Positions 5,235 to 29,783 of a stretch of DNA of 32,000 nucleotides are shown piece by piece. This DNA comes from Candidatus Lokiarchaeum ossiferum. GTDB lineage: Archaea > Asgardarchaeota > Lokiarchaeia > Sigyniarchaeales > Promethearchaeaceae. The DNA is taken from the NCBI GenBank assembly GCA_025839675.1, contig CP104013.1, forward strand, positions 5,610,001 through 5,642,000, written 5' to 3'. The position numbers and the translations under genes were made by a program. The notes beneath the pieces are model-generated. The model made no database searches. It saw only the letters and a program-made list of their open reading frames with translations, and had not been told where the DNA came from. Every line of letters starts with the position of its first letter. The first letter of the stretch is position 1.

Positions 5235-5969
5235 TTAAAGGTTCCAATTTTTCTTCTCCAAAGCAATTGATTTGTGGAAAGGAAGATTAAGAAGATTTTG
5301 ATTCTGGCGAACAAATTTCGCTCCGAATCCTTTTAGATCTATGAAGCGCCCTGAAGTTAATTTTACTTTACCTGAAGATAAGATTTTCGTTTCCGATTGC
5401 TGTATTGCTTGAATCACATTCCATGGTGTTTGAAATTCATCTAGTAACACTTTGGCTTTAATTTCACTTACTCCTATTAATCCCTCAATAAAATTCAGCT
5501 GCATCTTAAGACCTATTTCTAAAGAGGGGATGTCCAAGGGTTCGTATACAAACGGGTTATTTTTTTGTTGATATTTCGCAAAACTCCAGATCGTTTGCGC
5601 TGTTTCAAATTCATCAAGAGTTGTGATTAACGGAATGTTTTCTTTATAAAGAGCATAAATAATCGCTCCATAAATTGAAGCAGGCGCAATTCCGGTCCGA
5701 TCAAACATTTTTCCTGGATTTTCTAAAATAATAAGCGATTCTGGATAATAGTATTTCATTTTTTGGATTTGGGAAAAAAACCGATTATCACAGATCGATG
5801 CAACTAAATCGTCACCACGCTTGCGTTCGATCCCCATAGTTGATGAGATAAGGTAATCTGCTGTTTTCAAAGTTTCTATTTGAAGATTACATGGAATATT
5901 GCTAAAATTTCTCCGAATTTCTCCTCTTTCCCGCTCGTCCATAATAATGAGTGGCTTAAATGTTTCCAT
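5235..5969 (-). CDS. xpf: Short-form XPF/ERCC4-family structure-specific endonuclease (nuclease domain + HhH2), catalytic motifs intact
   Basis: LIIMDERERGE, TADYLIS and GIERKRGDDL (ERK at nt 5820-5828) match the ERCC4 GDXn-ERKX3D signature. The C-terminal part, GVSEIKAKVLLDEFQTPWNVI...LKGFGAKFVRQNQNLL, looks like tandem helix-hairpin-helix. Confidence 0.85.
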   Translation of the reverse strand: METFKPLIIMDERERGEIRRNFSNIPCNLQIETLKTADYLISSTMGIERKRGDDLVASICDNRFFSQIQKMKYYYPESLIILENPGKMFDRTGIAPASIYGAIIYALYKENIPLITTLDEFETAQTIWSFAKYQQKNNPFVYEPLDIPSLEIGLKMQLNFIEGLIGVSEIKAKVLLDEFQTPWNVIQAIQQSETKILSSGKVKLTSGRFIDLKGFGAKFVRQNQNLLNLPFHKSIALEKKNWNL

Positions 5970-5970
5970 T

Positions 5971-6189
5971 TCATTTCACCCTAGTTTTTGAAGAAAATAA
6001 ACATCCTAAAACAAGCAAAATGATTATTCCAACTTCATATGTGCCCATAAATGTCAGTGATCGAGTTGCCCATGTGATTTTTGAGTTAAAATAAATAGCA
6101 CCGAGGATGAATACACCAACAGTCAATATTTTTCCAAGATCAATACCTCTCCCCATAGGATTTTTTATTTTTAAGATATTTAAAATCAA
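5971..6189 (-). CDS. Small membrane protein with two predicted TM helices
   Basis: ILTVGVFILGAIYF and VGIIILLVLGCLFS are hydrophobic helices. Its stop lies 1 nt from the XPF start. The real start may be the internal MGRG. Confidence 0.45.
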   Translation of the reverse strand: MILNILKIKNPMGRGIDLGKILTVGVFILGAIYFNSKITWATRSLTFMGTYEVGIIILLVLGCLFSSKTRVK

Positions 6190-6265
6190 ATGGATTTAGG
6201 AAGATCTTAAAATTATGTTACTTCATTAAATTTGAATCATCAGTCTCGATAGACATAAAAATTAA

Positions 6266-8833: not shown

Positions 8834-9636
8834 TCCGCCTGGTATTTGTCCGGTTTAAAATTAGGTGTCATTATTAAAAAACGCCCTTGATCTAAAATAT
8901 ATCGGCGAGATTTTGAAACTCGCTGTAGTTGGGATTTTCCTTTAGATGTTCTTTTAATAATGTTTGAAAATGTTATTTCTCGTATCCATTTTTCTGGAGA
9001 ATATTGTGTGGATTTAAGCGATATCCAACTGCCTTGTAACATTTGGATAAAATCTGCATAATAGGGTACCTCACTATTATAAATTGGATTAAACGTTATA
9101 TGATGTATAAGAATTATCAAGAAGTTGCCTTTTGTTGTTAATGTTGAAATTTTTGGAAATAAAATATCACTAAAAGTGTGGACAGCATGAATATAGTCGG
9201 CATAATTAGAAACAGAACCAATTGTTGATTTCAAAATCCGAGAAAATGAATTTATGATTAATATTGGTCTTTCTTTCTTTACATTTTTATTCATTGGTAG
9301 AGATTCAATTAATTGAAATAAATCTTGGACGGATTGACATGAAAAATGATACATTCGTTCCAATAATGAATTTTTTGAGGAAAACATATTTTGAAGGATA
9401 CTTGGAGAAAGCCCACCTTCATTATCTGCGATATAAATGGGCTGAGTTGATATAGGTAAATGATATCGGATAAATTCTCGCAATAACGTAGATTTACCTG
9501 ATGCATTTTCCCCATTTATATGAATTATTGAAGGAAGTTCTTCCCGATATGAATGGGCAGACATCAATTTAATAAATCCATTAGTGTATGAAGGATTTTT
9601 CAGGGGTTTATTAAGTGCGGTGCTCTTTGAAATCAT
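8830..9636 (-). CDS. Divergent RecA/RadA-fold ATPase paralogue (RadB- or Rad51-paralogue-like core only, no N-terminal HhH domain)
   Basis: Walker A NGENASGKSTLL. IYIADNEGGLSP resembles RadA vvYIDTEgtF. The Walker B-like hydrophobic strand is PILIINSFSRIL, and FLIILIHHITFNP resembles the vvvTNQV strand. Confidence 0.6.
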   Translation of the reverse strand: MISKSTALNKPLKNPSYTNGFIKLMSAHSYREELPSIIHINGENASGKSTLLREFIRYHLPISTQPIYIADNEGGLSPSILQNMFSSKNSLLERMYHFSCQSVQDLFQLIESLPMNKNVKKERPILIINSFSRILKSTIGSVSNYADYIHAVHTFSDILFPKISTLTTKGNFLIILIHHITFNPIYNSEVPYYADFIQMLQGSWISLKSTQYSPEKWIREITFSNIIKRTSKGKSQLQRVSKSRRYILDQGRFLIMTPNFKPDKYQAE

Positions 9637-9650
9637 AAGTAATCGTTTCC

Positions 9651-10055
9651 TTAATTTTGTGTGCTCGCAGAGTATAATAATTCTGATCTTTGTTCACTTT
9701 TGAGTAAATTTCTTGATATATCCTGAGTATTAGTTTTTCCTGGTAATAATTCAAAGAGTGTCTCGATAATAGCTGCTTTTATTATATTATCTTCGATCAA
9801 TTCTTTGGAATTCAAGTGTTTAAGTCGCTTTACGTGGATTCTTGTATAACTTGAAATTTCCTTATGCATCCGTGTAAATTCGTTAATTAAATAAATTAAG
9901 AAATCATCTTCTTCCAATATTCCTTTGCTAAGCTGGGATACTTTCTCTCGAAGTTCTGCTCGATTCTTCTTTATGGTCTTTGAGATCTGAGATTCCAGCT
10001 CTAAACAATCTTGCTCTGTCATAAACTTGACCTTGAAAGATATTAAAAAAATCAA
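9651..10055 (-). CDS. Hypothetical small helical/coiled-coil protein
   Basis: 134-aa ORF wedged between radA and the RecA-fold paralogue. The listed start overlaps the radA stop by 4 nt, and an alternative start is MTEQD at about 10022. No motif recognised. Confidence 0.5.
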   Translation of the reverse strand: MIFLISFKVKFMTEQDCLELESQISKTIKKNRAELREKVSQLSKGILEEDDFLIYLINEFTRMHKEISSYTRIHVKRLKHLNSKELIEDNIIKAAIIETLFELLPGKTNTQDISRNLLKSEQRSELLYSASTQN

Positions 10056-11212
10056 GCTAAGGGATCTGCAATTCCTTTAGCCTTTTTCGCTTGCGATTTT
10101 TTTGTTGCGGGTTTCCTTGATGTGCTTTTTTTTTTTTTGGAAGACGTGCTTTTCTTTACTTTCACTGGGTCTTTTTCCAGCTTTTCAGTGGCGATTAATA
10201 AGTTCTCTTCTTCGTTCAAATCCGCAAGTGTCTTAAGTTCGCCTTCTTCCATGTATGTAATCGTTTCATCGTCGCTTATCCCCGCTTCTGTAATGTAAAA
10301 TACAGCAGATTCAGGTGGTAAATCCGGAGCATCAACGACTGTTGCAGTCCGTTCTAAACTCGAATTTGATTGAAATCCTTTTGTTTTAAAAACTATTCTG
10401 AAATGGCATCCATGGGCAACAATATTTCCTCCGATTGCTTCGTTTGACGCAAAGGAGCCTTTCATTTGAACCCCAACTTGATTGGTGACTAATACTGCTA
10501 TATTATGTGTCTCCGCAATTCTCGATAGATCATGAATCAATTTGTTCAAAACTTGTTGACGGGCAGCAAGCATCCCAATTCCGATGTATTCTGATCTCAT
10601 TAGAGCCATTAGCGAGTCAACAATAATGAGTTTCGCATTTTTCTCTTTTATTGCTTGTTCTGCCGCTCTTATCATTTGGAGTTGGTGATCCGTGGAAAAA
10701 ATCCTTGCGTGGTAGATATTTTGAAGTGTAGATGTAGGATCCAACCCAAAACGTTTAGAAATCCGTTCTACTTTAGTCCGTGAAAAAGTATTCTCCGTAT
10801 CAATGAATAAAACTGAGCCATCCAAACCGCCTTTTGATTTTGGGAGTTGACAAGTGACACACAAAGTATGGGATAGGTTCGTTTTTCCGCTTTTGAATGC
10901 TCCATAGACTTCAGTAATGCGACCAGTGGAGATTCCCCCATTCAAAATATTATCAAAATTTTGACTGCCTGTAGTACAATATTCAAAATTTTCTTCAATC
11001 GTTGATACTTGCTTAAATGTCGCCAGATTAAGACTGTCTCTTGCATTCCAGACTAAATTTTTGGATGCTTTTGCAGAGATTCCGTCAATTTCTTCTAAAT
11101 CTTTAGGTACACTCATAGCTAGAGCTTCAAGTGAATCGATACCAGATTCGGTGAGTAGTTTGATTTGACGGGGTTTGATGGATTTTAGAGCTAATAATTC
11201 CAATTTAATCAA
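10052..11212 (-). CDS. radA: RadA/Rad51-family recombinase with an extra C-terminal acidic-then-lysine-rich tail
   Basis: N-terminal HhH region (IKLLTESGIDSLEALAMSVPKDLEEIDGISAKAS), Walker A GAFKSGKT, HTLCVTCQLP, VLFIDTENTF, Walker B LIIVDSLMAL, VLVTNQV and ITEAGI are all present. The only in-frame start is TTG at 11212, with a stop two codons upstream. Confidence 0.95.
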   Translation of the reverse strand: MIKLELLALKSIKPRQIKLLTESGIDSLEALAMSVPKDLEEIDGISAKASKNLVWNARDSLNLATFKQVSTIEENFEYCTTGSQNFDNILNGGISTGRITEVYGAFKSGKTNLSHTLCVTCQLPKSKGGLDGSVLFIDTENTFSRTKVERISKRFGLDPTSTLQNIYHARIFSTDHQLQMIRAAEQAIKEKNAKLIIVDSLMALMRSEYIGIGMLAARQQVLNKLIHDLSRIAETHNIAVLVTNQVGVQMKGSFASNEAIGGNIVAHGCHFRIVFKTKGFQSNSSLERTATVVDAPDLPPESAVFYITEAGISDDETITYMEEGELKTLADLNEEENLLIATEKLEKDPVKVKKSTSSKKKKSTSRKPATKKSQAKKAKGIADPLA

Positions 11213-15465: not shown

Positions 15466-18400
15466 CTATTTCATACCAGACTTTTTTTTGACAAAAACCG
15501 AGACTCCTCCAATCAACACAAAGCTAGAAAAATAAATTATCGGATTAACAAAATTGGTCTGATCCAGATCCGAATTATTATTTGATACCGCTGAGGAATT
15601 GGAATTTTCATCCGAGCTTAAGTCTTCATTTAAGTTGTTTTGTGTTTCAGTGGCAGTTGATGAACTCGATGTTGATGTAGAAGAATTAGAAGATGAATTA
15701 GTCGTTGATGTGTCGGATGTTGTCGAATTTGAAGTGGTCGCTGTTGTTGTAGATGTATTGGTTGTTGTCGAATTTGAAGTAGTAGATGTTGTTGTAGATG
15801 TATTGGTTGTTGTTGAATTTGAGGTGGTCGTTGAAGACACATCCGTAGTGGTTGTAGTAGTCGTGGTTGAAATGGATGAATTTATCATGAAATAATAGTT
15901 TTGAAAGGGCGCCCAATCTTCTTGAAATATGGGTATGAAAAAAAATTCTTGATCGAATTCGATAACCGTGTTTAACAAACAAGTAAATTCGACTCGATCT
16001 TCGAAATAATCTGCCGAAACATTTGATTCTGTATATTTTGCAACTAAAAGGCCATCAATATCTCGGATCTCAAAATTGGGTGTAATTTTTGATATAATTG
16101 ATGGTTGCGACTGAATGCAATATTTTATAGTATTAAATTGGTCTCCTTCAATTATTTCAAAAGAATATATCCAAGAAAAATTTAACAAGACAGATAATTG
16201 GCAACCATATCTAATATTTTTGTAAGAAAAGCTCAAATCTGGTTGCCATTCTTGGGGATGAGATTGATTTGCTTCAGGAACAATTTCACATGAATATTTT
16301 CTTCCCATGATATTCCAATCATTGAATGTTGTTTCTTCACCCCGTAATTCAATTTCACTAATAGAAATTTCAGAGGCTAAAGAAAAACTTTGAATTGAAT
16401 AAGTATAACTTGAATCAATGATTTGGTCCGGAGGTATTTCGATAGCCACGCAAATCTGATCATTTTGCAAAATTTCACCAAGATAAATAAGTTCCATGTT
16501 ATATATCGGAACATTGGCAATAAGATGGGCGCAAAGGATTCCAATTTCTGGATGAATCATTTGAAAAAAAGACAAATCAAATTTGATATTAAGATCATTG
16601 CATAATTGAATGAAGATTGCTTTATCTTCATAGGAAAAACCATCGAAATTTTCCACCTGTTCATATAAAAAGTTCGAAAGTTTCGTATAATCTACTTGAT
16701 TTGTTGCAAGAATTTCATTTATGCGTAGAATGTAGTAAGTCATTGCAATTTGTGTTATTCCAGCATTTTCATTCGAGCCAGAAATTCCATGCCATAATGT
16801 GTCTGTTTCTACCATAGATTGATTCAAATTACCTAATATTGTAGTTAAATTTGCAATAGAATAATAATTAGCAAATGATTGTCCACGATCGAACTTAATC
16901 AAGATATTTTGGGCTTCAAGAGCATAAAATGTTGATTTTATATTTCCTGTTTGAGTTTCCAAGTGAGTATCATTGAGAAAATAACCTGTAGACAGAAGCT
17001 GGTCTGCAATCCATTGTTCACACTTTAAATATTGAGTAAAACCTATTTCCTCATACATTGCTTCTATCAAATTTAGATCATTTATTGTATCTAAAATGAA
17101 ATAATTTGTTGCTATAGGAAAATGGCTCCATTGTCCCCATAGAGACAGTATTTTTTGGGAAGGGGATTGGTTTGTGATGCTATAATTAATGTAATCGGAA
17201 AAGTAACCATCCGTTGTTAGTCTTGATAGGGAAGAATTCAGTACTTCTTGTTCCTCAAATTGTTCTGGAAAGTGTTTTAAATAAGAAAATTTCACTTTAT
17301 CTCCAAAAGCGCATTGATCCAATTTAGTTATGTAACTTGCACCACCATCAGAGTTGAAATAAGTCAAACAAAAATCTTGTAACCCTTTCAAATTATTATT
17401 GGAATCATCAAGTTGTGGAAGTAATGAAAAATTATCAAGAATAGGTATAATAGTAGATTGAATGAATAAATCGTCTGAGAAAAATGAAGAAGAGCGGAAA
17501 TAGAAATAATTGGGCCCCTCTTTTTGATCCGTACGATTATAGGTTGTTGAATTTAGCAATACGCCTAATACTGTAGATAATTCTGGAAAAACCATCTCCA
17601 TTTCTAGTAATCGAATACAATCAGCAATTATTGCTGATCCAAAATAGGTGACAGTTTCTGGAGATAAATAATCATTAAACTCCCCATAATAGCATTTACT
17701 CTGGCTATTGTAAATATTATTGTTAACTAAGAAATTTATGAAAGGATCACGAACTGAATTAAAATCCCCATCAATCATTTCAATTATTTTTAAAGCTTCC
17801 CAAGAAGCATAGTAGTTTTCCCAACCTAAATAAGCAGATGTGTCATACTCATTAAAAGCGCCAGCCATATATCCTGTTCGTTGAGTACTTTCAACATATT
17901 CTTGAATTAAATTTCGTTCTATTGGAGAAAAAGCTGTTATCTCATAGTTATTTAAGGCTTTAACAGACCATATTGCATAATAAGTTTCTAAAAGCGTGGA
18001 ATGGGGTGCAAATATCGATCCAAAACCTCCATCGGAATTTAAACCTGCTAAAATTTCATTCTCCCAGGCTAATATTTGCAGAGGATTAAAATTTGTGGAT
18101 AAGCGTCCAATATTTGCTAAAAGAATTATTGCCATTTGATGGGTTATATTGTATGAATACGGTGTTTTAAATAAATACGCTCCATCTTCATGATACATTG
18201 AATAATTCAGCGTTTCCTCAAAATGATGGCTTTTGACATTGAACTTTGACATGATATATTGTTCTAATCCATCTTTATACTCGCCATAGGAAGTAGGGTC
18301 TAGTACTTCCAAAGTAGTATAAGCAAAAAATGTAGAGTAAATAGAACTGGGTCTATCATACAGGTTCTCAGGTTGCACTATTTTCTCACTTACTGAGTTT

Positions 18401-18621
18401 AATAGAGGTGTATTTTCATAAATATCCAGAACTGGTAAGGATGTTCTAAAAGACGATATCGGCATAAATGGTGTGTTTGCTTTAAGATTAGGAAGATTTT
18501 TTAGGTCACTGTTTCTAAATTGATTGGTTTCTTCTTTAAATGTAATCGGCATTATAATGATCATAAATAGGAGTAGTGACAGCAAGATCCATGATTTTTT
18601 TTTTAGAGTTTGACAATTCAT
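15466..18621 (-). CDS. Secreted, membrane-anchored surface protein: alpha/alpha-toroid (prenyltransferase/terpene-cyclase-like) repeats + Thr/Ser-rich stalk + C-terminal TM anchor
   Basis: N-terminal signal/TM is WILLSLLLFMIIIM. Repeats such as LNSDGGFGSIF...TYYAIWSVKAL and FNSDGGASYI recur. A roughly 90-aa T/S stalk leads to the C-terminal IIYFSSFVLIGGVSVFVKKKSGMK. Many NxS/T sequons are present. Confidence 0.8.
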   Translation of the reverse strand: MNCQTLKKKSWILLSLLLFMIIIMPITFKEETNQFRNSDLKNLPNLKANTPFMPISSFRTSLPVLDIYENTPLLNSVSEKIVQPENLYDRPSSIYSTFFAYTTLEVLDPTSYGEYKDGLEQYIMSKFNVKSHHFEETLNYSMYHEDGAYLFKTPYSYNITHQMAIILLANIGRLSTNFNPLQILAWENEILAGLNSDGGFGSIFAPHSTLLETYYAIWSVKALNNYEITAFSPIERNLIQEYVESTQRTGYMAGAFNEYDTSAYLGWENYYASWEALKIIEMIDGDFNSVRDPFINFLVNNNIYNSQSKCYYGEFNDYLSPETVTYFGSAIIADCIRLLEMEMVFPELSTVLGVLLNSTTYNRTDQKEGPNYFYFRSSSFFSDDLFIQSTIIPILDNFSLLPQLDDSNNNLKGLQDFCLTYFNSDGGASYITKLDQCAFGDKVKFSYLKHFPEQFEEQEVLNSSLSRLTTDGYFSDYINYSITNQSPSQKILSLWGQWSHFPIATNYFILDTINDLNLIEAMYEEIGFTQYLKCEQWIADQLLSTGYFLNDTHLETQTGNIKSTFYALEAQNILIKFDRGQSFANYYSIANLTTILGNLNQSMVETDTLWHGISGSNENAGITQIAMTYYILRINEILATNQVDYTKLSNFLYEQVENFDGFSYEDKAIFIQLCNDLNIKFDLSFFQMIHPEIGILCAHLIANVPIYNMELIYLGEILQNDQICVAIEIPPDQIIDSSYTYSIQSFSLASEISISEIELRGEETTFNDWNIMGRKYSCEIVPEANQSHPQEWQPDLSFSYKNIRYGCQLSVLLNFSWIYSFEIIEGDQFNTIKYCIQSQPSIISKITPNFEIRDIDGLLVAKYTESNVSADYFEDRVEFTCLLNTVIEFDQEFFFIPIFQEDWAPFQNYYFMINSSISTTTTTTTTDVSSTTTSNSTTTNTSTTTSTTSNSTTTNTSTTTATTSNSTTSDTSTTNSSSNSSTSTSSSSTATETQNNLNEDLSSDENSNSSAVSNNNSDLDQTNFVNPIIYFSSFVLIGGVSVFVKKKSGMK
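15722..15838. repeat. Imperfect 45-48 bp tandem repeat (about 2.5 copies) encoding the Thr/Ser stalk
   Basis: The copies are gtcgaatttgaagtggtcgctgttgttgtagatgtattggttgtt, then gtcgaatttgaagtagtagatgttgttgtagatgtattggttgttgtt, then gaatttgaggtggtcgttgaagac. At protein level this gives SNSTTTNTSTTT(S/A)TT units. Confidence 0.85.
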
Positions 18622-18981: not shown

Positions 18982-20232
18982 TTGATTTTAAATAATTTAA
19001 TCAAAAAAAAGTGTATGAAAAATGCTAAATTGATTTATCTCACATTCCCATTCCTCTGTTTTCTTTTGATAAATTGCCTCGATATAGTCGATAATAATCC
19101 TATGGGACAAATTGAAGAAGTAACTGTGTTGTCCGCTTCTACCACCTTGTATGATTCTGTGGAATTGTTTCGCCCCCCTCAAACATCTCAGATTTTCAAT
19201 GTTTCCTTCATCAAGAATGTAACTTATTTCTTTTTTATGGAATCCTATGTGCCCTTCGCTGATGATTTTTCAGTTAATATTTATTGTACCAGCCCATCAG
19301 CCCGGCAGTATCACTTTTTCGATTATACAGCTGATATTGAAAACAATGCTTCAAAAATTTTCTTTGAGTTTGGATCGACTGAAACTGGCGTTTATAGCAT
19401 ACGTTATGATGTACTAACTACTGCGAACATAAATCTGCATCTTTACTTGGAAGAATATCTCTCAATTGACACATACTATGAGAAATTTTCAACGGATTTA
19501 ATTAATCGGAATATTTTGTTCTTTAGCAGTATTGATCGTTTTAGTACCAATCAACTCAGCCATACATATGAGATGTCCTTTCAGGAAGATACAGAATATC
19601 ATTTCAATTTCTTCCGTGTCAACCCCATTTCACTCACTGATATTGAGGTAAATGGATTCACTAATCCTCAGGTTTCAATGCAAGTAGAATTGAATGGTAC
19701 GCAATATATTTTTTATCCTTCTGTACCGACGCTTGAATATGCACTTTATTCAAATATAGAAAACTTAACTCATATAGGTAATCCAAATGAGCGGAATTTG
19801 TATAATAACTCCTTTTTGATTCGGTTTGGGGCTCATATCACTGGAAATGCTACGATAACTCTCACATTAAGTGATTACAACGGGTTTGATCTAAATTTTG
19901 CCTTCGTTGCATATGGGATTGGAGATATTGGAGATGGGCCTGATACTATTGGTGATAAGCAAGACCATAATAATAATTTCATAAATGTGACAATTATTGA
20001 TGATTTAATGGCTCCTAATGCAACCGATCTTCAAGAAGTCGATCCCACCGTAGATGATAAAATAAATTATGCTTTGGGAGAAGTTGAAAATTTTCTGGAA
20101 GCTCAATTTTGGATACTTCTTCCTAGCGTACTAGGGGCCGCAGGAGTTTTTTATGCCATATCCCATTTTAAACCAAACTTGAAAGTCCAAACCCAAGTTA
20201 TCCCTGATGGAAGGGAAATTTTGGAGGATTAA
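18982..20232 (+). CDS. Secreted N-glycosylation-rich protein with a C-terminal TM anchor
   Basis: Signal-like LIYLTFPFLCFLLINC, with the likely start at MKNAKL, about 19016. Sequons include NVS, NVT, NAS, NGT, NLT, NNS, NAT and NVT. The C-terminal TM is FWILLPSVLGAAGVFYAI, followed by a cytoplasmic tail. Confidence 0.75.
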   Translation: MILNNLIKKKCMKNAKLIYLTFPFLCFLLINCLDIVDNNPMGQIEEVTVLSASTTLYDSVELFRPPQTSQIFNVSFIKNVTYFFFMESYVPFADDFSVNIYCTSPSARQYHFFDYTADIENNASKIFFEFGSTETGVYSIRYDVLTTANINLHLYLEEYLSIDTYYEKFSTDLINRNILFFSSIDRFSTNQLSHTYEMSFQEDTEYHFNFFRVNPISLTDIEVNGFTNPQVSMQVELNGTQYIFYPSVPTLEYALYSNIENLTHIGNPNERNLYNNSFLIRFGAHITGNATITLTLSDYNGFDLNFAFVAYGIGDIGDGPDTIGDKQDHNNNFINVTIIDDLMAPNATDLQEVDPTVDDKINYALGEVENFLEAQFWILLPSVLGAAGVFYAISHFKPNLKVQTQVIPDGREILED

Positions 20233-20235
20233 AAA

Positions 20236-21015
20236 ATGGGTTATTTCATTTATTTAGTGTTATTGTTTCCTTTGCGAAGGTTCCTTTCCAGAGTTCTTGA
20301 GTTAGTGGGCCATTTCATTCCTCCCTTATTAACAATCAGCTTGAAACTGGATCAATTTTCTACAATTTTTCACGAAATATGTCACTATGGGATGAATAAA
20401 CTTATGTTCATACCAGTATCCTTGGAAGATATTTCTTTTTCCGATAATTTACAAAGTGGATCTGTGAGAATCAACTATGATACCGCAACTCATTATCGAT
20501 TTTCTTTGATGAAGTGTTTTCTTATTTCTCTTGCGCCATTATTTATCGGGACTTGGATAGTTTTATTTTTGGTGAGCAAATGGGATGGAACATCCCTTGG
20601 GGGGAAAATTGGGCTTGGACTCGCCATTTGTTGTCTCATACTTGGATTACAGCCTTCAAATGCAGATATCAAATGCATTTACATTTATGGGGTAACAAAA
20701 AGACCATGGCTTGCCTTACGACAAGTAATCTGTATGGGGCTGGCCTCTTTGTTTTATTTGTGGCAAGCTGATTTTTTCATGCAATTCTATGTTTTAGTTC
20801 CAATTCTATTTGAAATTACAGTGATTTTAGCAATTTTTATTCTGTTAGATCTAATATGTTATGGATTAGATGAAGTTCTCCGTTTTCTGAAGAATAGAAC
20901 AATACAAATGACGTTCAATCGAAGCTTGCATATTCGAAAATATAAAATACCTCTCTTTGCAAAACCTGTCATAAAGCAAAGTAGAATGAATAATTTGCAG
21001 GAGAACTCGCAATGA
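20236..21015 (+). CDS. Polytopic membrane protein with an HExxH motif (DUF3267/M50B-like putative zincin peptidase)
   Basis: HEICH is encoded at 20371-20385, just after the first hydrophobic segment. About five TM helices are present. The gene starts 3 nt after the upstream stop and overlaps the downstream gene by ATGA. Confidence 0.65.
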   Translation: MGYFIYLVLLFPLRRFLSRVLELVGHFIPPLLTISLKLDQFSTIFHEICHYGMNKLMFIPVSLEDISFSDNLQSGSVRINYDTATHYRFSLMKCFLISLAPLFIGTWIVLFLVSKWDGTSLGGKIGLGLAICCLILGLQPSNADIKCIYIYGVTKRPWLALRQVICMGLASLFYLWQADFFMQFYVLVPILFEITVILAIFILLDLICYGLDEVLRFLKNRTIQMTFNRSLHIRKYKIPLFAKPVIKQSRMNNLQENSQ

Positions 21016-21779
21016 GTCAAGTTTATTATCCGAGGTGGAAACTTCCTTGGAATTTACCCACTTTTTCCGTACAATTACCTTTTCTTGCAATGAAATTGAA
21101 CTGTCGGGTGATAAATTATCGCTCCGATGAAACCTTTCATTTACACTACTTGAAAGAAAAGATGCTAGTAGTCGAGATTAGTCCTACCTGCGGTGTTCTC
21201 ATTATTGATCCGCAAGCGTTACCCTTGGAATTTAGTGAGATCCCTATTTTTAAAGATCGAATTGAAGCATTCATGGAAGAATATTCTTTTTCTTTAGTGA
21301 TATGGCAAGGATACCAAAATTCTTTAACTCAAATGGCAAAAAATCTTCCCAAAATTGCTTTAGCCTTGCGCGGGATGTTAATGCGTCATGTTCTTACCTA
21401 TCACCAAGCCATGATTCCTACTCGTCATTTAGAAGATACCGCCTTATGTCTACGAAGTTTAGCAAAACGAGTCCAGATTGTTGATAATCCTCCATCAAAC
21501 TCACGAATAAAAGCCAAAGCACGAAGGTTGTATGATGCACAGCAGACATTAATAGAAGGGTTTTGCCTTATGGGATTAAAAAAATTTAAGCTTTTAAGTA
21601 CCGAGTTTCAATTTCCTTTTGAAATCATGGAAGAAATACGTTCTTCAGAGCTACTATACACACGCACGGGGAATCCCAAAGGTATAACTGGAAGATTAAA
21701 GAATATCAAGTTATTTGATTTTGAATTCATTCGCCAAAATCAGATATTACTAACTAAAAATAATACTTTGGATAACTAG
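21012..21779 (+). CDS. Catalytically inactive XPF/ERCC4 paralogue (nuclease-like domain + HhH2-like C-terminus)
   Basis: By-eye alignment to the XPF at 5235-5969 gives three matched blocks (XPF first): IPLITTLDEFETAQTIWSFAK vs QAMIPTRHLEDTALCLRSLAK; QLNFIEGLIGVSEIKAKVLLDEFQ vs QQTLIEGFCLMGLKKFKLLSTEFQ; FGAKFVRQNQNLL vs FDFEFIRQNQILL. The catalytic positions are replaced: ERK becomes EIS at 21174-21182, DERE becomes FSVQ, and ADY becomes LHY. Confidence 0.75.
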   Translation: MSQVYYPRWKLPWNLPTFSVQLPFLAMKLNCRVINYRSDETFHLHYLKEKMLVVEISPTCGVLIIDPQALPLEFSEIPIFKDRIEAFMEEYSFSLVIWQGYQNSLTQMAKNLPKIALALRGMLMRHVLTYHQAMIPTRHLEDTALCLRSLAKRVQIVDNPPSNSRIKAKARRLYDAQQTLIEGFCLMGLKKFKLLSTEFQFPFEIMEEIRSSELLYTRTGNPKGITGRLKNIKLFDFEFIRQNQILLTKNNTLDN

Positions 21780-21863: not shown

Positions 21864-24800
21864 CTAAATTGTGACTGCAAAATCTTCCAAAGCTTCTATA
21901 AGTGCTTCTATTTTTTTAGAATCTGATATAGCCAAATGATTGATTAAAATTTGTCTATCTTTTAATAAAAATTGTATAGATCGAGCTTCAGGGATTGAAT
22001 CGAGCGAGGAAATTCCGAGCTGCCATTGATTCTTTAAATAGTCAATTGCTTGACTCCTTTCTTGATCTTGTAGCTTAGAACGTGTTTCAACCAAAAGATC
22101 AATTAAAAAGGAACGCAATTCATTTTGCCAAGCATAACTTTCTAAAGTTAAGGATGGTGAAGGAAGGGTGTCTTTAGAACTAAAAGATTTTTCAAAATAG
22201 GTTTTAACATCTGAATTATGCTCTTTAGAATCCATTCTTTCTGTTACAGATGAGCCTATAGGTATTCCATCATTTGAAATCAAAATTTTTAACTCTTCAG
22301 GATCCAAAATTTTTGTCCGACTTGAAGAAACACGCTGCAATTTTGTAAATTTTTTAAAATCCTTTAAACATTTCTCTGCTTTTGAGGACAGAATATATCC
22401 AGTTATTTCAATGTTAGAATTTGCTTGATGAGTTTTTTTAATAAAATACTTTCGATTAATTAAATCTTCGAGAATGGATGCAGTTTTTTCTTTCCGATGT
22501 TTTACATCTATTGGGTAAAAATTTCTCAAGGTACTATCAATAATACTTTCTAGATCTTCGAGTAAGGTGTGTTTTGGAATGACTTTGGAAATAGTTAGAC
22601 TCTTAGCACAATCATTTAAAAAAATATGAAGATCATTATGTAAAGAAGGTTGATTGCTAAATTCTATGGTCAAAGACGTAACCAAAGGTGGATTTTCGGG
22701 TTCAGCAGGTGCAACAATCTTCGAAAATTGGAGATGTGAAGGAATGTTTTGTGGGAGTATGAAATTTAATCTTTCTGTGTCGGTATCAAGCTGATCAAAT
22801 TGAAAAACATAGGATTTCTGATATAATGTTCGATATATGATGCCTTTATTAAGATCTAAAGAAGTCAAATATTGATATTGATAACTGGATTGCCTCGCGG
22901 ATTTTTGGGATGTATTGGTAAATTGCCCATCAAATTTCAATAAAGATCCCAGTAAACGTCGATGATTATATTGAGCTGTTCGCAAGGCGATAATTGTATC
23001 AAAATTAGCGTGGATGGATTCATGAATTTCTGCACATTGACAAGATTCTGCTAAGATTGGCATTTGTAGTGCTAAAAATTCTGCAAACATTTCATCTATG
23101 GTTGTATGGTTCCGTTTGTCTATCCGGTTATTAAATATTAAGTGTAAATGAGGAAGCATGATCACTTTAGGAAGAATTGAGGCTTCATTGGTATAATCGC
23201 TAAGTAAAAATTGTAACTGGGTTAGAAATACCTGAATAAACAAATTTTTATATTTATTCACCTTTAACCGAGAAAGATCCAAGATGAAAGGTGAAGCCGA
23301 TTCTATAAATGTGAGTGGATTAAGAGAGACACTCATGTCTCGATCAAAAGCTATAAAATATTGCTGAGCTTTGAATAAATTCATCATGGTAAACACTTCA
23401 CTTTTGTGTAAGGTTGCAGGAGATTTATCGAAAAAGGCTTCAATCCGTTCAACTATTAACGATAAATCTGCTTTTCCAGACTCATTTTTCGTTATCCATG
23501 CACTGCGTAAAATAGATATTTGATCATTATTCCAATGAAATATTCGCCCGAAAATATCCAAAACCTTTTCAATGTAAGAGATTAAATCTTCTCCAGCCTC
23601 CGTTATTGGAAGATCAAAGAGTTTCAATCCAAAATCATTACCGACTTCTAAATACTGAATTGGGTTTGATTCATTATCTGAAGCTGAACCTAATCGAGAT
23701 TTCCAAGTACCATCCCAATCAAAAATGATTGCGGGGATATTATGTTTTAATAATTCCTTAATTATACGAATTGAAATGATTGTGTTTTGACGGTGATTAT
23801 CTCCTGCTAGCAAAATATTTCCCCATAGTTCAGCAATATTTATCCCTCCTTCACTTTCTAACGTGAAATTTTCTGGATTAAAAGTACTTCCCAAAAAAAT
23901 TTCATCGTTAAGATAGGGTGTGGAAAATTCTCCAGCATAATACATAGGAAGCACCCGATGAATTTCTTCTGGAATCATTATCAACTCCGATAATTGGATC
24001 CCAGCGGCACAAAATAAAAATAAAGGTGATGAATAAGATCCCCATCGTCGATTTTTACAAATAGATTGGAAGAAGACTTTTGAAGACACTTGTTTTATCT
24101 CACAAGAAGGATGAGCTAAGTTTAAAATCTGAAGGTATTGTTCCTGTGCAAAGATTTTCTTAATATAAAATTCTTTACCAAAATCTTCGATTTTTTCCAG
24201 AGGCATTTCTGTGGCTAAAGTAAATTGATTTTGAAAACGATAAAAGCCACAATATTCGCGTTCTAATGTTTTACGTTTACCTGGAATTTTTTCAAAGAGT
24301 GCATAATCCTTATCTTGTAAAAAGTCTCGAAATTCTGCAATCATTTCATTGGGAGTAACCCGATCTAAAAAATATTGATGGCTGAAGGATGTAGATGTAT
24401 TATTAAAATTGTTCATTAAAGCTCGATATAGTTTTGTGTTATTTTGATGGTAGGCTCGGTTTAGCTGACGCATGGAAAAATGCTGACGACATGTAATAGT
24501 GTTTCGTTCAGGAGTGTGGATCCAAACATCTCCATCTGGATCTAAATAAAGAAGTTCATTAGTTGGAAAAAGATCGATGGGTAAATAAGAATGAATTGAT
24601 TTTTGAGTCCGAAAATAAAAGGTAGCGCGGAACCGTGCAATCATATTGATCAGAGTAAATAAAACCATTCCCACGACTCCATAAATTACGTATGGGATTG
24701 TGGAAAACAAAAGCATGCCAACATATCCCACAAGGCTTAAATTGAAAAGCAAAGGAAAATAATGTCTGATTAAGTATTTTAAGCCCTTTATCGGGGATAA

Positions 24801-25658
24801 TGTTTCAGTAAATTCATAATCTTCTGGTAAAACTTCTTCTTGACTCCAAGCACTTTTAATACTTCTGATTAAATCTATACCCTGAAGCATTTCAAAGTGA
24901 TAATGGGGAAAATTTACCTCAATGATATCTTGAATACACAAAGCAATAAGTTTCATTTTCGAGACAAGATTGGAAACCATTTTGTTTGAAATATTTTTAA
25001 CTTTGCGAGTAAAAAAGATGCGATAATTTAGTTTTGTTTGTTTTCCTATTGTATCTGGAATTTGCGATGTCTGAAATATCGTGGAAGTAGTTTTTTCCTC
25101 CGAGTTGGAAAAATCGACTTGGAAAGTTAAGGGTGCAACTTCTTTCAATTCAGCAACTTTCCGTAAAAAATCGTTAAAATTGGCTTGAATATGGAATGGT
25201 ACTGCTTTGAGTTCAACACCCATCGTAGCTATAGCATGGTTATTGTGCATATTTTGGAGAATTAGCATATTACTTTTATTAAAAAAATCTTTTTTATCTC
25301 GGTTGGGGGGTTGAAACATGGCTTCTGACATATAATTCAAACAGCTTAGACTCGCTACCATAGATTTTGTATCGATCTGTTTGATTCCTGTCTTTTTGTG
25401 GAAAAAAGTTCGCATTTGAAGGGAAGGATCATATGAGAAATACACAAGATTTATCCCAAAGCAGATCGAAAAACCAATAGAGATATTTGTTCTGTTCTCA
25501 ATGTCCCCAAAAATGAAAGCTAATGTAGCCCATCCTGTCAAAAATCCCATTAGGATGAAATACTTCCATAAATTTTGCTTAAGGCTCACTTTGAAGTGAT
25601 CCAGTTTAAATAACATATCATATTTGAAAATTTGTTTAGGTCCTGGGGAATGATCCAT
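21864..25658 (-). CDS. 1264-aa membrane-anchored HerA/FtsK-superfamily (DUF87-like) P-loop-fold protein with degenerate Walker A and B
   Basis: Four N-terminal TM helices are present (e.g. FILMGFLTGWATLAFIF, VGYVGMLLFSTIPYVIYGVVGMVLFTLI). The central region follows the HerA order. NILLAGDNHRQNTIISIRIIKELL takes the place of hhG-TGSGKS (nt 23781-23804). AIIFDWDGTW resembles vliFDphGEY. PFILDLSRL resembles the v-iDLS strand. KVIMLPHLHLIF takes the place of hhh-EEAH (nt 23133-23165). SCQCAEIHESIHANFDTIIALRT is sensor-like. The CDS call is firm, while the fold assignment is tentative. Confidence 0.6.
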   Translation of the reverse strand: MDHSPGPKQIFKYDMLFKLDHFKVSLKQNLWKYFILMGFLTGWATLAFIFGDIENRTNISIGFSICFGINLVYFSYDPSLQMRTFFHKKTGIKQIDTKSMVASLSCLNYMSEAMFQPPNRDKKDFFNKSNMLILQNMHNNHAIATMGVELKAVPFHIQANFNDFLRKVAELKEVAPLTFQVDFSNSEEKTTSTIFQTSQIPDTIGKQTKLNYRIFFTRKVKNISNKMVSNLVSKMKLIALCIQDIIEVNFPHYHFEMLQGIDLIRSIKSAWSQEEVLPEDYEFTETLSPIKGLKYLIRHYFPLLFNLSLVGYVGMLLFSTIPYVIYGVVGMVLFTLINMIARFRATFYFRTQKSIHSYLPIDLFPTNELLYLDPDGDVWIHTPERNTITCRQHFSMRQLNRAYHQNNTKLYRALMNNFNNTSTSFSHQYFLDRVTPNEMIAEFRDFLQDKDYALFEKIPGKRKTLEREYCGFYRFQNQFTLATEMPLEKIEDFGKEFYIKKIFAQEQYLQILNLAHPSCEIKQVSSKVFFQSICKNRRWGSYSSPLFLFCAAGIQLSELIMIPEEIHRVLPMYYAGEFSTPYLNDEIFLGSTFNPENFTLESEGGINIAELWGNILLAGDNHRQNTIISIRIIKELLKHNIPAIIFDWDGTWKSRLGSASDNESNPIQYLEVGNDFGLKLFDLPITEAGEDLISYIEKVLDIFGRIFHWNNDQISILRSAWITKNESGKADLSLIVERIEAFFDKSPATLHKSEVFTMMNLFKAQQYFIAFDRDMSVSLNPLTFIESASPFILDLSRLKVNKYKNLFIQVFLTQLQFLLSDYTNEASILPKVIMLPHLHLIFNNRIDKRNHTTIDEMFAEFLALQMPILAESCQCAEIHESIHANFDTIIALRTAQYNHRRLLGSLLKFDGQFTNTSQKSARQSSYQYQYLTSLDLNKGIIYRTLYQKSYVFQFDQLDTDTERLNFILPQNIPSHLQFSKIVAPAEPENPPLVTSLTIEFSNQPSLHNDLHIFLNDCAKSLTISKVIPKHTLLEDLESIIDSTLRNFYPIDVKHRKEKTASILEDLINRKYFIKKTHQANSNIEITGYILSSKAEKCLKDFKKFTKLQRVSSSRTKILDPEELKILISNDGIPIGSSVTERMDSKEHNSDVKTYFEKSFSSKDTLPSPSLTLESYAWQNELRSFLIDLLVETRSKLQDQERSQAIDYLKNQWQLGISSLDSIPEARSIQFLLKDRQILINHLAISDSKKIEALIEALEDFAVTI

Positions 25659-26875: not shown

Positions 26876-27262
26876 TCATTCTAAGAACTCTTCTTTTGCT
26901 TCTGCTAAAGCTTCACAAGTACTTCTCTGTGAACAAGTAAAACAAGGTCCCATTGTCCAAAAGTAGGTTTTTTTGGATTGAGATCGAAAGGTTCCAGTTT
27001 TTATGTATTGTTTTGGGATTACTGCTAATAGCTGAATATGACTATGAGGTTGAGGTTCAAGTCCCTTTCTACTAGGAATTGGTTTTGGACAAAATAAGGC
27101 AGTTATTTCCAAATTGCCTTTTTTGGGAATTCCATATCCAAACTGGGCAGGACAACACTCATTTATGCATTTTGCCATCCGAGAACGTGATTGTGTTCGA
27201 AAAACAAACATTTCATCTCCACAATACGGACAATCACCTATATTCAATTCAGTACTTATCAT
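26876..27262 (-). CDS. Zinc-finger protein with a topoisomerase-I-type C4 zinc ribbon
   Basis: CPYCGDEMFVFRTQSRSRMAKCINECCP resembles the zf-C4_Topoisom pattern CPxCG-x(n)-C-x(2-4)-C. A second Cys cluster is CFTCSQRSTC. The gene lies 11 nt downstream of the preceding ORF. Confidence 0.6.
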   Translation of the reverse strand: MISTELNIGDCPYCGDEMFVFRTQSRSRMAKCINECCPAQFGYGIPKKGNLEITALFCPKPIPSRKGLEPQPHSHIQLLAVIPKQYIKTGTFRSQSKKTYFWTMGPCFTCSQRSTCEALAEAKEEFLE

Positions 27263-27273
27263 TTGTTTTCCTC

Positions 27274-27597
27274 CTAAAAGGGATTACTCCATTTTTTGAT
27301 TAGCTGACCAAAAGTATCTTGATCGCGCTTTATTTCAATAGAACTGGCGGATTCACTCCCCCTAACTTTAAATCCAGCATCAATGTAAACAACTAAGCAA
27401 TGAACAGGGTTGCCATGAATAATAACATGTGGGAAAGGAAAGTGTGTTTGTTTCTCTAAATCTTGTTGTTCTATTCCAAATTTCAACATTTCCCCACATT
27501 GGGGACATAATTGCATAAATTTCCCTGATTTTTTAATTTCTTGGGAACGTTCAAAAGATCGTGATGTTGTGTTGGATAAATTAGTTTGACTGATCAT
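27274..27597 (-). CDS. Small CxxC/His-containing putative zinc-binding protein
   Basis: MQLCPQCGEML...HVIIHGNPVHCLVVYID. The probable start is the internal MQLC. It lies 35 nt downstream of the helicase stop on the same strand. Confidence 0.5.
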   Translation of the reverse strand: MISQTNLSNTTSRSFERSQEIKKSGKFMQLCPQCGEMLKFGIEQQDLEKQTHFPFPHVIIHGNPVHCLVVYIDAGFKVRGSESASSIEIKRDQDTFGQLIKKWSNPF

Positions 27598-27632: not shown

Positions 27633-29783
27633 TCAAAAGTGATCTTTGGCAAATTTCTTAAGAATCGTCCGGATTTTAATATGTAAAGTTGCAATATCCT
27701 TGAATAAAACTAAGTTGATCTGCAGCAAATCTCTAAACTCTTTAACTCTCTGTGCCAATAATTTCTGTTCTTCAGGTAGAATATTAGAAATATCTAAAAA
27801 TATTAAATATTTGTTCACAGAAATCTGTTTATTTTTAATACTTTTCAAAAATAAAAAATTATTTGCATCAATTTCAATTTCCGAGGCATTTAGGATGTCG
27901 AATCCAATTTTGACTTTCTTCGCGGAAATATATATGTCAAATTCACTTGATTTTAAAATTAAACCAAAATTTAGAGATAAAGATGATTCCAACTCATAAA
28001 GATCATTCACCTCTGGGGATATTTGAATCGAATGAGTTTTATTGCTTCTAATCTTGTTTTCCTTTACTTCAGATAGTGAAGTAATTTCTTTTGAATATAA
28101 AATAGGTAATTTTCCATTTAATTTCTTAGAGACTTGTTTAGCCTTTATTTTTGAATCCAAAACTGGTTTAATCTCAAATTTTTTTTTGAATTGATCCTTT
28201 TTTCGTTTCGCAATTAAGTGATTCCGTTCATCCGATGTTCCAATAGTATAAAGATAAATTACCTTTCCTTTTCCCGATCTTCCAGTTCTACCTGCTCGTT
28301 GAATTAATTGTATTACTGATGCTGAATTATCAAAAAAGACCACTACATTGCATTCTGCAATATCAAGACCTTCTTCTGCGACATTGGTTGCAATCAATAC
28401 ATTGTATTTTCCTGATTTGAAGTCATTGGTCAATTTTATTTGATCCTTTTGTTTAAGCCCCTCATCTCCCTTTTTTGATGCTTGTCCCACAAATTTTTGT
28501 GGACGACAGTGGGGGATAGATCTAATTTTTTTAAGGATACTCTTTATAGTAGCTCGTAATTTAACAAAAATTAGAATACGACTGCTAGAATTATCTTCAA
28601 ATTGTGATTTTAAAATTGATCGCAACTGAATTATCTTTGGATGTTCCAATAATTTTGGGTTTTGATATTTTTCAATCTGTAATGCTTGGTAAATTTGTGA
28701 GATCTGTATTTCTGAACTTAAAAATCGATCAGCCATTGATGCTTTACCCTTTTGGATTTTTTCATACATTTTTTCGAGTGTATTTAGCACCACTTCCAAT
28801 CCTTGGGATTCCAGATCATTTATTAATTTAAGGATTTTCATAAGCCGTGCATTTGTAGAAATTAAAATACGAAGTTCCCTCTCATTAACGCCTTCTTTTT
28901 TTAATGCTGATGGGAGGGATTTCATTTTGTCGGCACAAAAACCTAAGTGGTATAAATTTGGGTTAGTTGGAGCAGATGAATCGTAATTTAATAGAAGTTC
29001 CATATATCCTGCCACTGTGTGATTTTTTAGTTCAACAAGGCTTGAATGAACTTTCATCATAAAAGGGCTCATCTGAACTCCAATATCAATTTCCTCTTTA
29101 TCAAAAGTGTACTGTTGTACTTCTGCGTGTTTTAGATCACGAAATTCAATATTATTCTTTGAAATGTGCAAATTTTCCATTATTTCTAACTGCTTTTTAT
29201 TAGAAGATCCAGGAGATGCGGTGAGAGCCATAATCCTTCCTTGAATATTTTCTTTAACATAATGATCCGCTATACTACAATAAGCATAATTTCCAGAAGC
29301 TCTATGCGCTTCATCAAAAATAATTAGATCTACCTTAGATAGTGTATATAACTTATTTTCGAGATCATTTCGGAGAGTTTGCGGGGTCATAAAAAGAATT
29401 TTACCAATTTTTAATTGAAAAACTTCCTGACGTTTTGTTGGCTTTATTTGCCCTGTTAGTTGCAATAATGAGATCTTTTCAGTATCGAGAATTTCAATGT
29501 GCGATTGATAATGTTGATTGATTAATGGTCGCGTAGGTGCAAGAAATATAATTGTGGGATTGGGATATGATGGATTGGTTAAAAAATGTAGCATTGTTAA
29601 AGTTCCAATAAAGGTCTTACCTAACCCCGTTGGAATAACTACCATGAGATTTTCTTTAAAGGCACGGTCAGATATTTTAATTTGATATTCACGTGGATTT
29701 ATTTTCTCGTTTTTCAAATATGGGATAAATTGAGAGTGTAATTTGGTTTTTGGATTGGTTGGAGTCAGAGCTTGTTGAATCAT
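27633..29783 (-). CDS. Hef/FANCM/Mph1-family DEAH helicase with a degenerate ERCC4-like C-terminal domain
   Basis: REYQ, motif I PTGLGKT, motif II IIFDEAHRA, motif III LTASPG, and motif V/VI VLIATNVAEEGLDI...QRAGRTGR. A long helical insertion lies between the RecA lobes, as in Hef. See the separate feature for the C-terminus. Confidence 0.9.
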   Translation of the reverse strand: MIQQALTPTNPKTKLHSQFIPYLKNEKINPREYQIKISDRAFKENLMVVIPTGLGKTFIGTLTMLHFLTNPSYPNPTIIFLAPTRPLINQHYQSHIEILDTEKISLLQLTGQIKPTKRQEVFQLKIGKILFMTPQTLRNDLENKLYTLSKVDLIIFDEAHRASGNYAYCSIADHYVKENIQGRIMALTASPGSSNKKQLEIMENLHISKNNIEFRDLKHAEVQQYTFDKEEIDIGVQMSPFMMKVHSSLVELKNHTVAGYMELLLNYDSSAPTNPNLYHLGFCADKMKSLPSALKKEGVNERELRILISTNARLMKILKLINDLESQGLEVVLNTLEKMYEKIQKGKASMADRFLSSEIQISQIYQALQIEKYQNPKLLEHPKIIQLRSILKSQFEDNSSSRILIFVKLRATIKSILKKIRSIPHCRPQKFVGQASKKGDEGLKQKDQIKLTNDFKSGKYNVLIATNVAEEGLDIAECNVVVFFDNSASVIQLIQRAGRTGRSGKGKVIYLYTIGTSDERNHLIAKRKKDQFKKKFEIKPVLDSKIKAKQVSKKLNGKLPILYSKEITSLSEVKENKIRSNKTHSIQISPEVNDLYELESSLSLNFGLILKSSEFDIYISAKKVKIGFDILNASEIEIDANNFLFLKSIKNKQISVNKYLIFLDISNILPEEQKLLAQRVKEFRDLLQINLVLFKDIATLHIKIRTILKKFAKDHF
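27636..28028 (-). other. ERCC4-nuclease-like domain lacking catalytic residues (C-terminus of the Hef/FANCM-like helicase)
   Basis: I threaded this by eye on the Pyrococcus Hef nuclease domain as I remember it. IQISPEV sits against VVVDSRE. SEFDIYIS sits against VGDYIIS. VKIGFDILNASEI sits against VAIERKSANDFIQSI. NKYLIFLDIS sits against RPIMIVEGS. INLVLFKDIATLHIKIRTILKK sits against VPIIFSSTPEETAQYIFLIAKR. No HhH2 follows. Confidence 0.5.

Follow-up and report, generated by a model that had tools for sequence, protein, structure and literature searches.

XPF-family nucleases are dimeric: those of archaea are homodimers, those of eukaryotes heterodimers of an active and an inactive subunit (PMC3905867). 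The locus described here raises the question of what an XPF-family protein that has lost its active site does in an archaeal genome. The window that we analyzed is a 32,000-nucleotide stretch of Candidatus Lokiarchaeum ossiferum (contig CP104013.1, positions 5,610,001 to 5,642,000). An initial annotation, made from the letters alone, had singled out a 255-residue open reading frame (ORF) in this stretch as a stand-alone XPF/ERCC4 paralogue with an erased active site, and had proposed it as a non-catalytic partner resembling ERCC1, EME1 or FAAP24. The ORF, which we call T1, does exist (21012-21779, plus strand) and is 100% identical to NEF87_004793 of L. ossiferum (cluster P0001 of our homologue set). 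T1 is a structurally intact, catalytically dead member of the XPF/ERCC4 family. The first half of the earlier description was thus borne out by hhalign, AlphaFold2 (AF2), Foldseek and the ratio of nonsynonymous to synonymous substitution rates (dN/dS): T1 is a conserved stand-alone paralogue under purifying selection, with an ERCC4 fold and a double helix-hairpin-helix domain, (HhH)2 or HhH2. The parts of T1, and the active XPF with which it is compared, are as follows.

21012..21779, plus strand: T1 (255 residues, NEF87_004793, hypothetical protein), catalytically dead XPF-family paralogue (ORF, hhalign, AF2, Foldseek)
21012..21482, plus strand: pseudo-nuclease domain of ERCC4 fold, residues 1-157 (AF2 secondary structure, Foldseek, dN/dS)
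21198..21206, plus strand: L63-I64-I65, equivalents of the catalytic E-R-K (ERK) of XPF (L-INS-i and hhalign agree)
21483..21527, plus strand: basic linker, VDNPPSNSRIKAKAR (conserved motif; low predicted local distance difference test score, pLDDT)
21528..21764, plus strand: (HhH)2 domain, residues 173-251 (BLASTP and hhalign alignment to the HhH2 of XPF)
21648..21692, plus strand: beta-hairpin insertion within the HhH2 domain, ELLYTRTGNPKGITG (alignment; strands in the model)
5235..5969, minus strand: XPF1, active short XPF of 244 residues, candidate catalytic partner (Pfam ERCC4 2e-20; catalytic columns)

T1 is a full-length XPF paralogue without catalytic residues

XPF1 is a genuine ERCC4 nuclease, as had been assumed, and its catalytic residues D11, E12, D38, E48, R49, K50 and D54 are intact in the alignment. 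The paralogy of the two proteins, first proposed from the matching FIRQNQILL and FVRQNQNLL segments, was upheld by pairwise BLASTP, which joined T1 177-248 to XPF1 157-228 across these segments at 38% identity (E 4e-11), covering the C-terminal 72 residues only. Recognition of T1 by family models was mixed: Pfam returned neither ERCC4 nor any other match at E<=1, but the NCBIfam Hef model matched residues 83-201, and these only, with an E-value of 2.5e-7. T1 scored below the cut-offs of both relevant NCBIfam models, with 29.2 bits against the 610 required for Hef (NF010337) and 16.1 bits against the 300 required for the archaeal XPF equivalog Arch_Xpf (NF040956). Full-length homology had to be established with profiles. 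An hhalign comparison of 40 proteins of the ERK-less family to which T1 belongs (described below) with 33 active XPFs gave a probability of 100% and an E-value of 4e-44 over 221 columns. Against the Protein Data Bank (PDB), the ERK-less profile matched archaeal XPF (2.5e-7) and Hef (9e-6) best, as well as the Hef HhH2 structure 1x2i at 1e-3, and the Pfam HHH_5 domain was detected in 17 of the 40 family members.

The fate of the active site was read from two alignments, the hhalign comparison and an L-INS-i alignment of 118 full-length homologues clustered at 50% identity. Both place D38 of XPF1 on V53 of T1, E48-R49-K50 on L63-I64-I65, and D54 on A69. They differ at the upstream acidic pair, D11/E12, which falls on P12/W13 in hhalign and on V20/Q21 in L-INS-i. 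In the hhalign register, all seven catalytic positions are substituted (P/W/V/L/I/I/A), and in both alignments T1 lacks the GDXnERKX3D motif together with the acidic pair upstream of it. The core is offset by about +15 relative to XPF1, so that the register of +7 on which the initial annotation had relied, with the catalytic positions on F18-S19, H45 and E55-I56-S57, was mistaken, even though its conclusion that these residues are all gone from T1 was right. The AF2 beta-hairpin at residues 51-57/60-65 corresponds to the GDY...ERK hairpin of XPF, and an alternative constellation of conserved polar residues is not evident. Because the metal-binding and ERK residues have all been replaced by apolar ones, T1 is, on the evidence of its sequence, firmly predicted to be unable to cut DNA.

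The fold is intact and under purifying selection

A first AF2 model built from 11 sequences reached a pLDDT of 76.6, and a second, built from a 48-sequence alignment, reached 92.6. In the latter, the ERCC4-type alpha/beta domain is complete (1-157) and is joined by a flexible basic linker to the (HhH)2 domain (173-251). The alpha/beta domain runs through b1 (8-11), a1 (22-28), b2 (32-35), b3 (51-57), b4 (60-65), a helix at 74-90, b5 (93-99), a helix at 101-130, b6 (134-137) and a helix at 140-157; within the linker, the block 161-170 has a low pLDDT of 59, and the HhH2 insertion is modeled as strands 214-216 and 222-225. The two hallmarks of the XPF/MUS81 (ERCC4) superfamily, the alpha/beta fold and the HhH2 domain, are therefore both present. 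When the model was searched against the PDB with Foldseek, all top matches were XPF-family structures. The best of these was Aeropyrum XPF (E 2.5e-6), and the Hef nuclease 1j24 superposed with a TM-score of 0.79 and a root-mean-square deviation of 3.1 A over 152 columns. Eukaryotic matches were FAAP24 (E 7.7e-4), ERCC1 (E 1.1e-3) and EME1 (E 1.4e-3).

Much of what is conserved in T1 is common to active XPFs, including the polar residues R138, D142, R153, Q155, D158 and R165 and the beta6-alpha segment IPTR..DTA..SLAKR. No motif in the ERK-less family is better conserved than the linker VDNPPSNSRIKAKAR together with the AKRVQI that precedes it, and R153, D158, P161 and R165 are invariant across 40 members of the family. 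Intact orthologues of T1 were found at 72%, 61%, 41% and about 37% identity. Overall dN/dS lies between 0.07 and 0.12 and is similar in both domains; for the pseudo-nuclease domain of the Promethearchaeum orthologues, dN of 0.04-0.08 over dS of 0.65-0.92 gives a ratio of 0.07-0.11. T1 is thus under strong purifying selection.

We also considered, and rejected, a sign of pseudogenization in the sister L. ossiferum genome CP163304.1. There, a 230-residue chimeric ORF (P0004; locus L017, 8001-8693) fuses the first ~48 residues of a membrane protein with an HExxH motif, encoded directly before T1 in the window, to T1 from about residue 70 to its end. Its surroundings, a variable region containing TIR_2 and DUF4238 genes, are not syntenic with the T1 locus, and the ORF is therefore an extra shortened copy and not the T1 orthologue. 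The true orthologue is still present, as cluster P0001 holds two member sequences on three contigs.

T1 belongs to a clade of ERK-less XPF paralogues in two subtypes

A profile of four T1 orthologues, run against 1.84 billion representative sequences, returned 156 matches, from which the 118 aligned homologues come. The canonical pattern D-[DE]-D-ERK-D is carried by 62 of the 118, and in about 41 of the clusters, T1 included, the ERK positions are hydrophobic. By neighbor-joining (NJ), these ERK-less proteins form one clade apart from the active XPFs, with a bootstrap of 100/100 on all columns and of 88/100 when only columns C-terminal to the catalytic region are used. Loss of ERK is thus conserved across ~41 clusters in a single clade. 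T1 is a member by monophyly, by its hydrophobic ERK positions and by the linker motif AKRxQIxDxPPxLxR.

The alignment holds a third class beside these. In 14 of the 118 homologues (P0081, P0097, P0102, P0112, P0113, P0116, P0119, P0131, P0133, P0138, P0144, P0147, P0150 and P0153), the motif reads DxD-E[ILVF]K-D, so that both aspartates, the glutamate and the lysine are kept and the arginine of ERK is replaced by I, L, V or F.

Motifs and gene context divide the clade into two subtypes. The T1 subtype has an EIS-type strand and a YTRTGNPKG beta-hairpin insertion in HhH2. In the T2 subtype an IPP motif replaces EIS, the insertion is absent and the second hairpin is a canonical GFG, while the ERK positions are hydrophobic and the AKRxQIxDxPPxLxR linker is present as in T1. 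The GNPKG insertion occurs in T1 and in the active XPFs P0006-P0010, which come from Asgard-type contigs, and not in T2.

Hosts were named through scans of GTDB species genomes and of metagenomes, the latter contributing short contigs only, and through look-ups. They are L. ossiferum, Promethearchaeum syntrophicum MK-D1, three metagenome-assembled genomes (MAGs) of Promethearchaeum sp. and several uncultured archaea; the two named host genera, Lokiarchaeum and Promethearchaeum, belong to the family Promethearchaeaceae. The dead XPF paralogues are thus a monophyletic clade in Lokiarchaeia-type archaea. The annotation of their products goes no further than 'hypothetical', 'HhH domain-containing' or 'ERCC4 domain-containing' proteins, and in the literature, which our search covered incompletely, we found no description of an inactive XPF paralogue in archaea. 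So far as that search reached, the clade is previously undescribed.

T2 genes are linked to genes for active XPFs

L. ossiferum encodes two active XPFs and two dead ones: XPF1 and T1 lie in the window, and outside it XPF2, which shares only 38% identity with XPF1, stands beside T2 (NEF87_000998). The XPF-T2 pairs of the two cultured hosts are as follows.

L016, 3509-4273 (minus strand) and 8001-8687 (plus strand): XPF2 and T2 of L. ossiferum
L009, 7055-7813 (minus strand) and 7863-8549 (plus strand): active XPF and T2 of MK-D1

T2 adjoins an active XPF gene, or is closely linked to one, in 11 loci (L009-L013, L016, L019, L021 and L023-L025). The two genes are divergently adjacent in MK-D1 (L009), L010-L013, L019, L021 and L024, with about 50-150 bp between them or with ORF calls that overlap; elsewhere they are separated by one gene (L023), by two genes (L016, L. 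ossiferum) or by about 3.5 kb (L025). The order Band_7, OMPdecase, Rce1-like, XPF, T2, actin, prenyltransferase, FolD is common to L009, L016, L023 and L024. This is strong comparative evidence that XPF and T2 would form a functional couple. T1 and T2 occur together in L. ossiferum, in the three Promethearchaeum sp. genomes and in MAG co13_463, and a pattern-limited scan of MK-D1 found T2 and did not find T1.

Two further features of these loci were observed. In Lokiarchaeum and Promethearchaeum the XPF2/T2 pair adjoins an actin-family gene (Pfam Actin), and the MK-D1 T2 is annotated merely as a 'helix-hairpin-helix domain-containing protein'.

Together, these data indicate that L. ossiferum very probably encodes an active/inactive XPF pair, as the initial annotation had suggested. 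What carries this conclusion is the T2-XPF linkage in 11 loci, and on genomic grounds such a pair is accordingly best supported for T2 and not for T1, the protein for which the suggestion was made.

T1 closes a conserved operon

The immediate setting of T1 is a different one, and consists of these genes.

18982..20232, plus strand: first operon gene, a 416-residue predicted surface protein (sequence; kept in L001 and L004-L006)
20236..21015, plus strand: second operon gene, a 259-residue multi-pass membrane protein with HExxH (kept before T1 in L001, L004-L006 and L008)
15466-18621, minus strand: orphan protein of 1051 residues flanking the operon
21864-25658, minus strand: orphan protein of 1264 residues flanking the operon

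T1 is the last gene of this conserved three-gene unit. The 416-residue protein has a signal or transmembrane (TM) segment at its N-terminus, is rich in NxS/T sequons and carries a TM segment at its C-terminus. The stop codon of the membrane protein gene overlaps the T1 start (ATGA), and a GGAG lies 8 nt 5' of the T1 ATG. The HExxH motif (HEICH, HELSH or HESLH) is invariant in 6 homologues of the membrane protein, which also carries conserved APL..GT and PS..D motifs. The three-gene arrangement is found again in L001, a Lokiarchaeum relative at 72% identity, and in the three Promethearchaeum sp. (L004-L006), the membrane gene precedes T1 in MAG co13_463 (L008) as well, and this two-gene order is kept down to about 31% T1 identity. 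Neither Pfam, NCBIfam, PADLOC nor the PDB gave a family match for the neighbors of 416, 259, 1264, 1051 and 358 residues. The 1051- and 1264-residue orphans are also conserved in the Promethearchaeum sp. loci and in L007.

XPF1 and a Hef-like helicase lie elsewhere in the window

The remaining genes that bear on T1 are XPF1, whose neighbors are listed here, and a helicase.

10052-11212, minus strand: RadA
8830-9636, minus strand: KaiC/ArlH-like ATPase, 268 residues
6266-8833, minus strand: Hel308-like helicase
27633..29783, minus strand: Hef-like helicase, 716 residues (NCBIfam Hef model, positions 8-545 of 781 only)

The minus-strand genes at 5235-11212 form a contiguous recombination/repair cluster of RadA, a 134-residue ORF, the KaiC/ArlH-like and Hel308-like genes, a 72-residue ORF and, in last place, XPF1; this position at the end of a RadA/Hel308 cluster suggests joint action of XPF1 with Hel308 and RadA. 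In XPF1 and several of its close relatives, a serine replaces the conserved glycine of the first HhH hairpin (GLIGVSEIKA, residues 162-172), and behind HhH2 the active XPFs of its clade have a conserved tail, LL..[PS][FY]..[SA], that is absent from T1 and T2. In L003 a 215-residue HHH_5 protein is encoded 5' of an active XPF; we weighed it as a possible counterpart of ERCC1 and dropped it, since it is lysine-rich, with a single C-terminal HhH and, by eye, no ERCC4-like region.

In the Hef-like helicase, nuclease and HhH2 domains are not recognizable. Its C-terminal 160 residues, in which the initial annotation had seen a pseudo-nuclease that might partner T1, gave an hhalign probability of <1% and about 2 bits in hmmsearch against the active and dead XPF profiles; with no detectable ERCC4 similarity, the pseudo-nuclease reading has no support from the sequence. 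Synteny of the helicase with T1 is confined to Lokiarchaeum (two genomes, including L001), and in L001 its C-terminal 160 residues are conserved. Directly downstream of it on the minus strand lie two small Cys-rich, zinc-ribbon-like proteins (26876-27262 and 27274-27597); ORFs of similar size (138 and 107 residues) stand at these positions in L001, and a homologue of the 107-residue protein was found in L011.

What T1 may do

The reading that we prefer, with a probability of roughly 40%, is that T1 pairs with an active XPF as the non-catalytic subunit of an asymmetric dimer, with XPF1 as the candidate partner. Since dimers are the rule throughout the XPF family (PMC3905867), T1 would be expected to function within a dimer as well, and its nuclease-like and HhH2 domains would both take part in pairing with the active XPF. 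The best candidate may be XPF1, in the RadA-Hel308-XPF1 cluster: XPF2 is gene-linked to T2, and with two active and two dead proteins in the genome XPF1 and T1 are left over as an unpaired pair. The resulting nuclease would be asymmetric and specific for junctions, with only one active site; the part of the dead subunit would be to bind DNA or partners, the role that ERCC1 and EME1 have in eukaryotes.

Several points weigh against this reading. No XPF gene adjoins T1 in the seven T1 loci examined, and the conserved linkage of T1 is to the genes for the surface protein and the HExxH membrane protein, a link that a role as repair-nuclease subunit leaves unexplained. The 15-kb distance between XPF1 and T1 is known from one genome only. 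The first hairpin of the T1 (HhH)2 domain is canonical (G188), but the second is degenerate, with GFG changed to LFD. An NH/NQ covariation between the putative partners in the last HhH2 helix, which we had considered in its favor, proved inconsistent in the 72%-identity Lokiarchaeum relative. The T1/T2 split and the internal branching of the ERK-less clade are poorly resolved by NJ bootstrap, and a T1 homodimer or a T1-T2 pairing could equally be formed.

This last point leads to a rather unlikely, though serious, alternative, in which T1 would be a nuclease-dead binder of branched DNA that acts without an active XPF, as a dimer with itself or with T2. Its analogues would be FANCM(ERCC4)-FAAP24 or Zip2-Spo16, and it would mark or protect junctions or recruit factors to them. 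The co-occurrence of T1 and T2 in several genomes is consistent with it, as are the conserved fold, linker and first HhH hairpin of T1 and the absence of an XPF neighbor. T2, however, already has a conserved XPF neighbor, and its presence in MK-D1, where the pattern-limited scan gave T2 without T1, indicates that T2 does not need T1.

We consider it distinctly unlikely that the role of T1 is tied instead to its operon partners, the surface glycoprotein-like and the HExxH membrane protein, as a DNA-binding or regulatory module that the membrane metalloprotease-like protein controls or acts with, and not as a classical repair subunit. The order of membrane gene and T1, maintained from Lokiarchaeum to Promethearchaeum sp. 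and co13_463, speaks for such a tie, together with the ATGA overlap, the upstream GGAG, the invariant HExxH and the shortened duplicate P0004, which carries the junction of both genes. Yet such a system has no precedent, the neighbors match no family, co-residence in an operon can be incidental, and T1 itself has neither a TM segment nor a signal peptide.

That T1 is a FAAP24-like partner of the Hef-like helicase, supplying an HhH2 and nuclease-like dimer module in trans, is improbable. The Hef match ends at model position 545/781 and HhH2 is absent, so that a module of this kind would fill a gap, and 6 kb separate the helicase from T1 in two genomes of Lokiarchaeum. The helicase is nevertheless encoded on the opposite strand with four genes between, its C-terminal 160 residues have no similarity to ERCC4, and no Hef-like gene lies to the right of T1 within 7.5 kb (L005) or 3.7 kb (L006). 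Finally, a reading of T1 as the decaying remnant, devoid of function, of an XPF gene duplication, to which the lost active site, the degenerate second hairpin and the shortened copy in the sister genome might point, is effectively refuted by the low dN/dS in both domains, the intact orthologues at 37-72% identity with conserved synteny and the confident fold prediction.

A wider version of the preferred reading, in which T1 would pair with an active XPF, is that Lokiarchaeia already build eukaryote-style asymmetric XPF nucleases, in two specialized pairs, XPF2-T2 and XPF1-T1. We offer it tentatively, as an unlikely but consequential possibility. If such live/dead pairs were real, the rule of homodimers in archaea and heterodimers in eukaryotes would be overturned, and if the pairs dimerize, then subunit specialization by loss of the active site would either predate eukaryotes or have arisen in parallel in their closest relatives. 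Lokiarchaeia are among the closest cultured relatives of eukaryotes, and that L. ossiferum and P. syntrophicum MK-D1, the two cultured Asgard archaea, both have members of a dead XPF clade bears on that rule; either outcome would inform the origin of XPF-ERCC1, MUS81-EME1 and FANCM-FAAP24. The coupling of T1 to the HExxH membrane protein is an additional lead.

Comparison with known XPF-family systems

In architecture, an ERCC4 fold, a linker and (HhH)2, T1 equals the Aeropyrum pernix XPF (PDB 2BGW/2BHN) and the nuclease of P. furiosus Hef (1J22-1J25), and archaeal XPF and Hef are also its best profile and structural matches; with active XPFs from Asgard-type contigs it has the HhH2 insertion in common. 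It differs from archaeal XPF and Hef, which are active homodimers (PMC3905867), in that its active-site and upstream acidic positions have been replaced. Within the ERK-less clade, T2 genes pair with an active XPF, whereas the T1 gene pairs with a membrane protein gene.

With ERCC1, EME1/EME2 and FAAP24 (also Spo16) T1 shares an ERCC4-like fold without the catalytic motif, followed by (HhH)2, and like these eukaryotic non-catalytic subunits it coexists in one genome with active paralogues, XPF1 and XPF2. These features make it a candidate for the class of ERCC1, EME1 and FAAP24, but by sequence it falls outside the ERCC1/Rad10 family proper: Pfam Rad10/ERCC1 matched none of the 40 ERK-less members at E<=1, and the ERK-less profile hit no ERCC1, EME1 or FAAP24 chain in the PDB at E<=10, its matches there being archaeal XPF and Hef chains alone, with none from a eukaryote. 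The specific relationship to one of these subunits that the initial annotation had envisaged did not emerge, and in structure T1 stands nearer to archaeal XPF than to any of the three. In its boldest version, the idea of early asymmetric nucleases would make the ERK-less clade the evolutionary source of ERCC1- or EME1-type subunits and not a convergent likeness. Because the clade roots among archaeal XPFs, however, the resemblance is most likely convergent, and the ERK-less proteins would most likely stem from an archaeal, Asgard-type duplication of XPF, independent of the events that gave rise to the non-catalytic subunits of eukaryotes.

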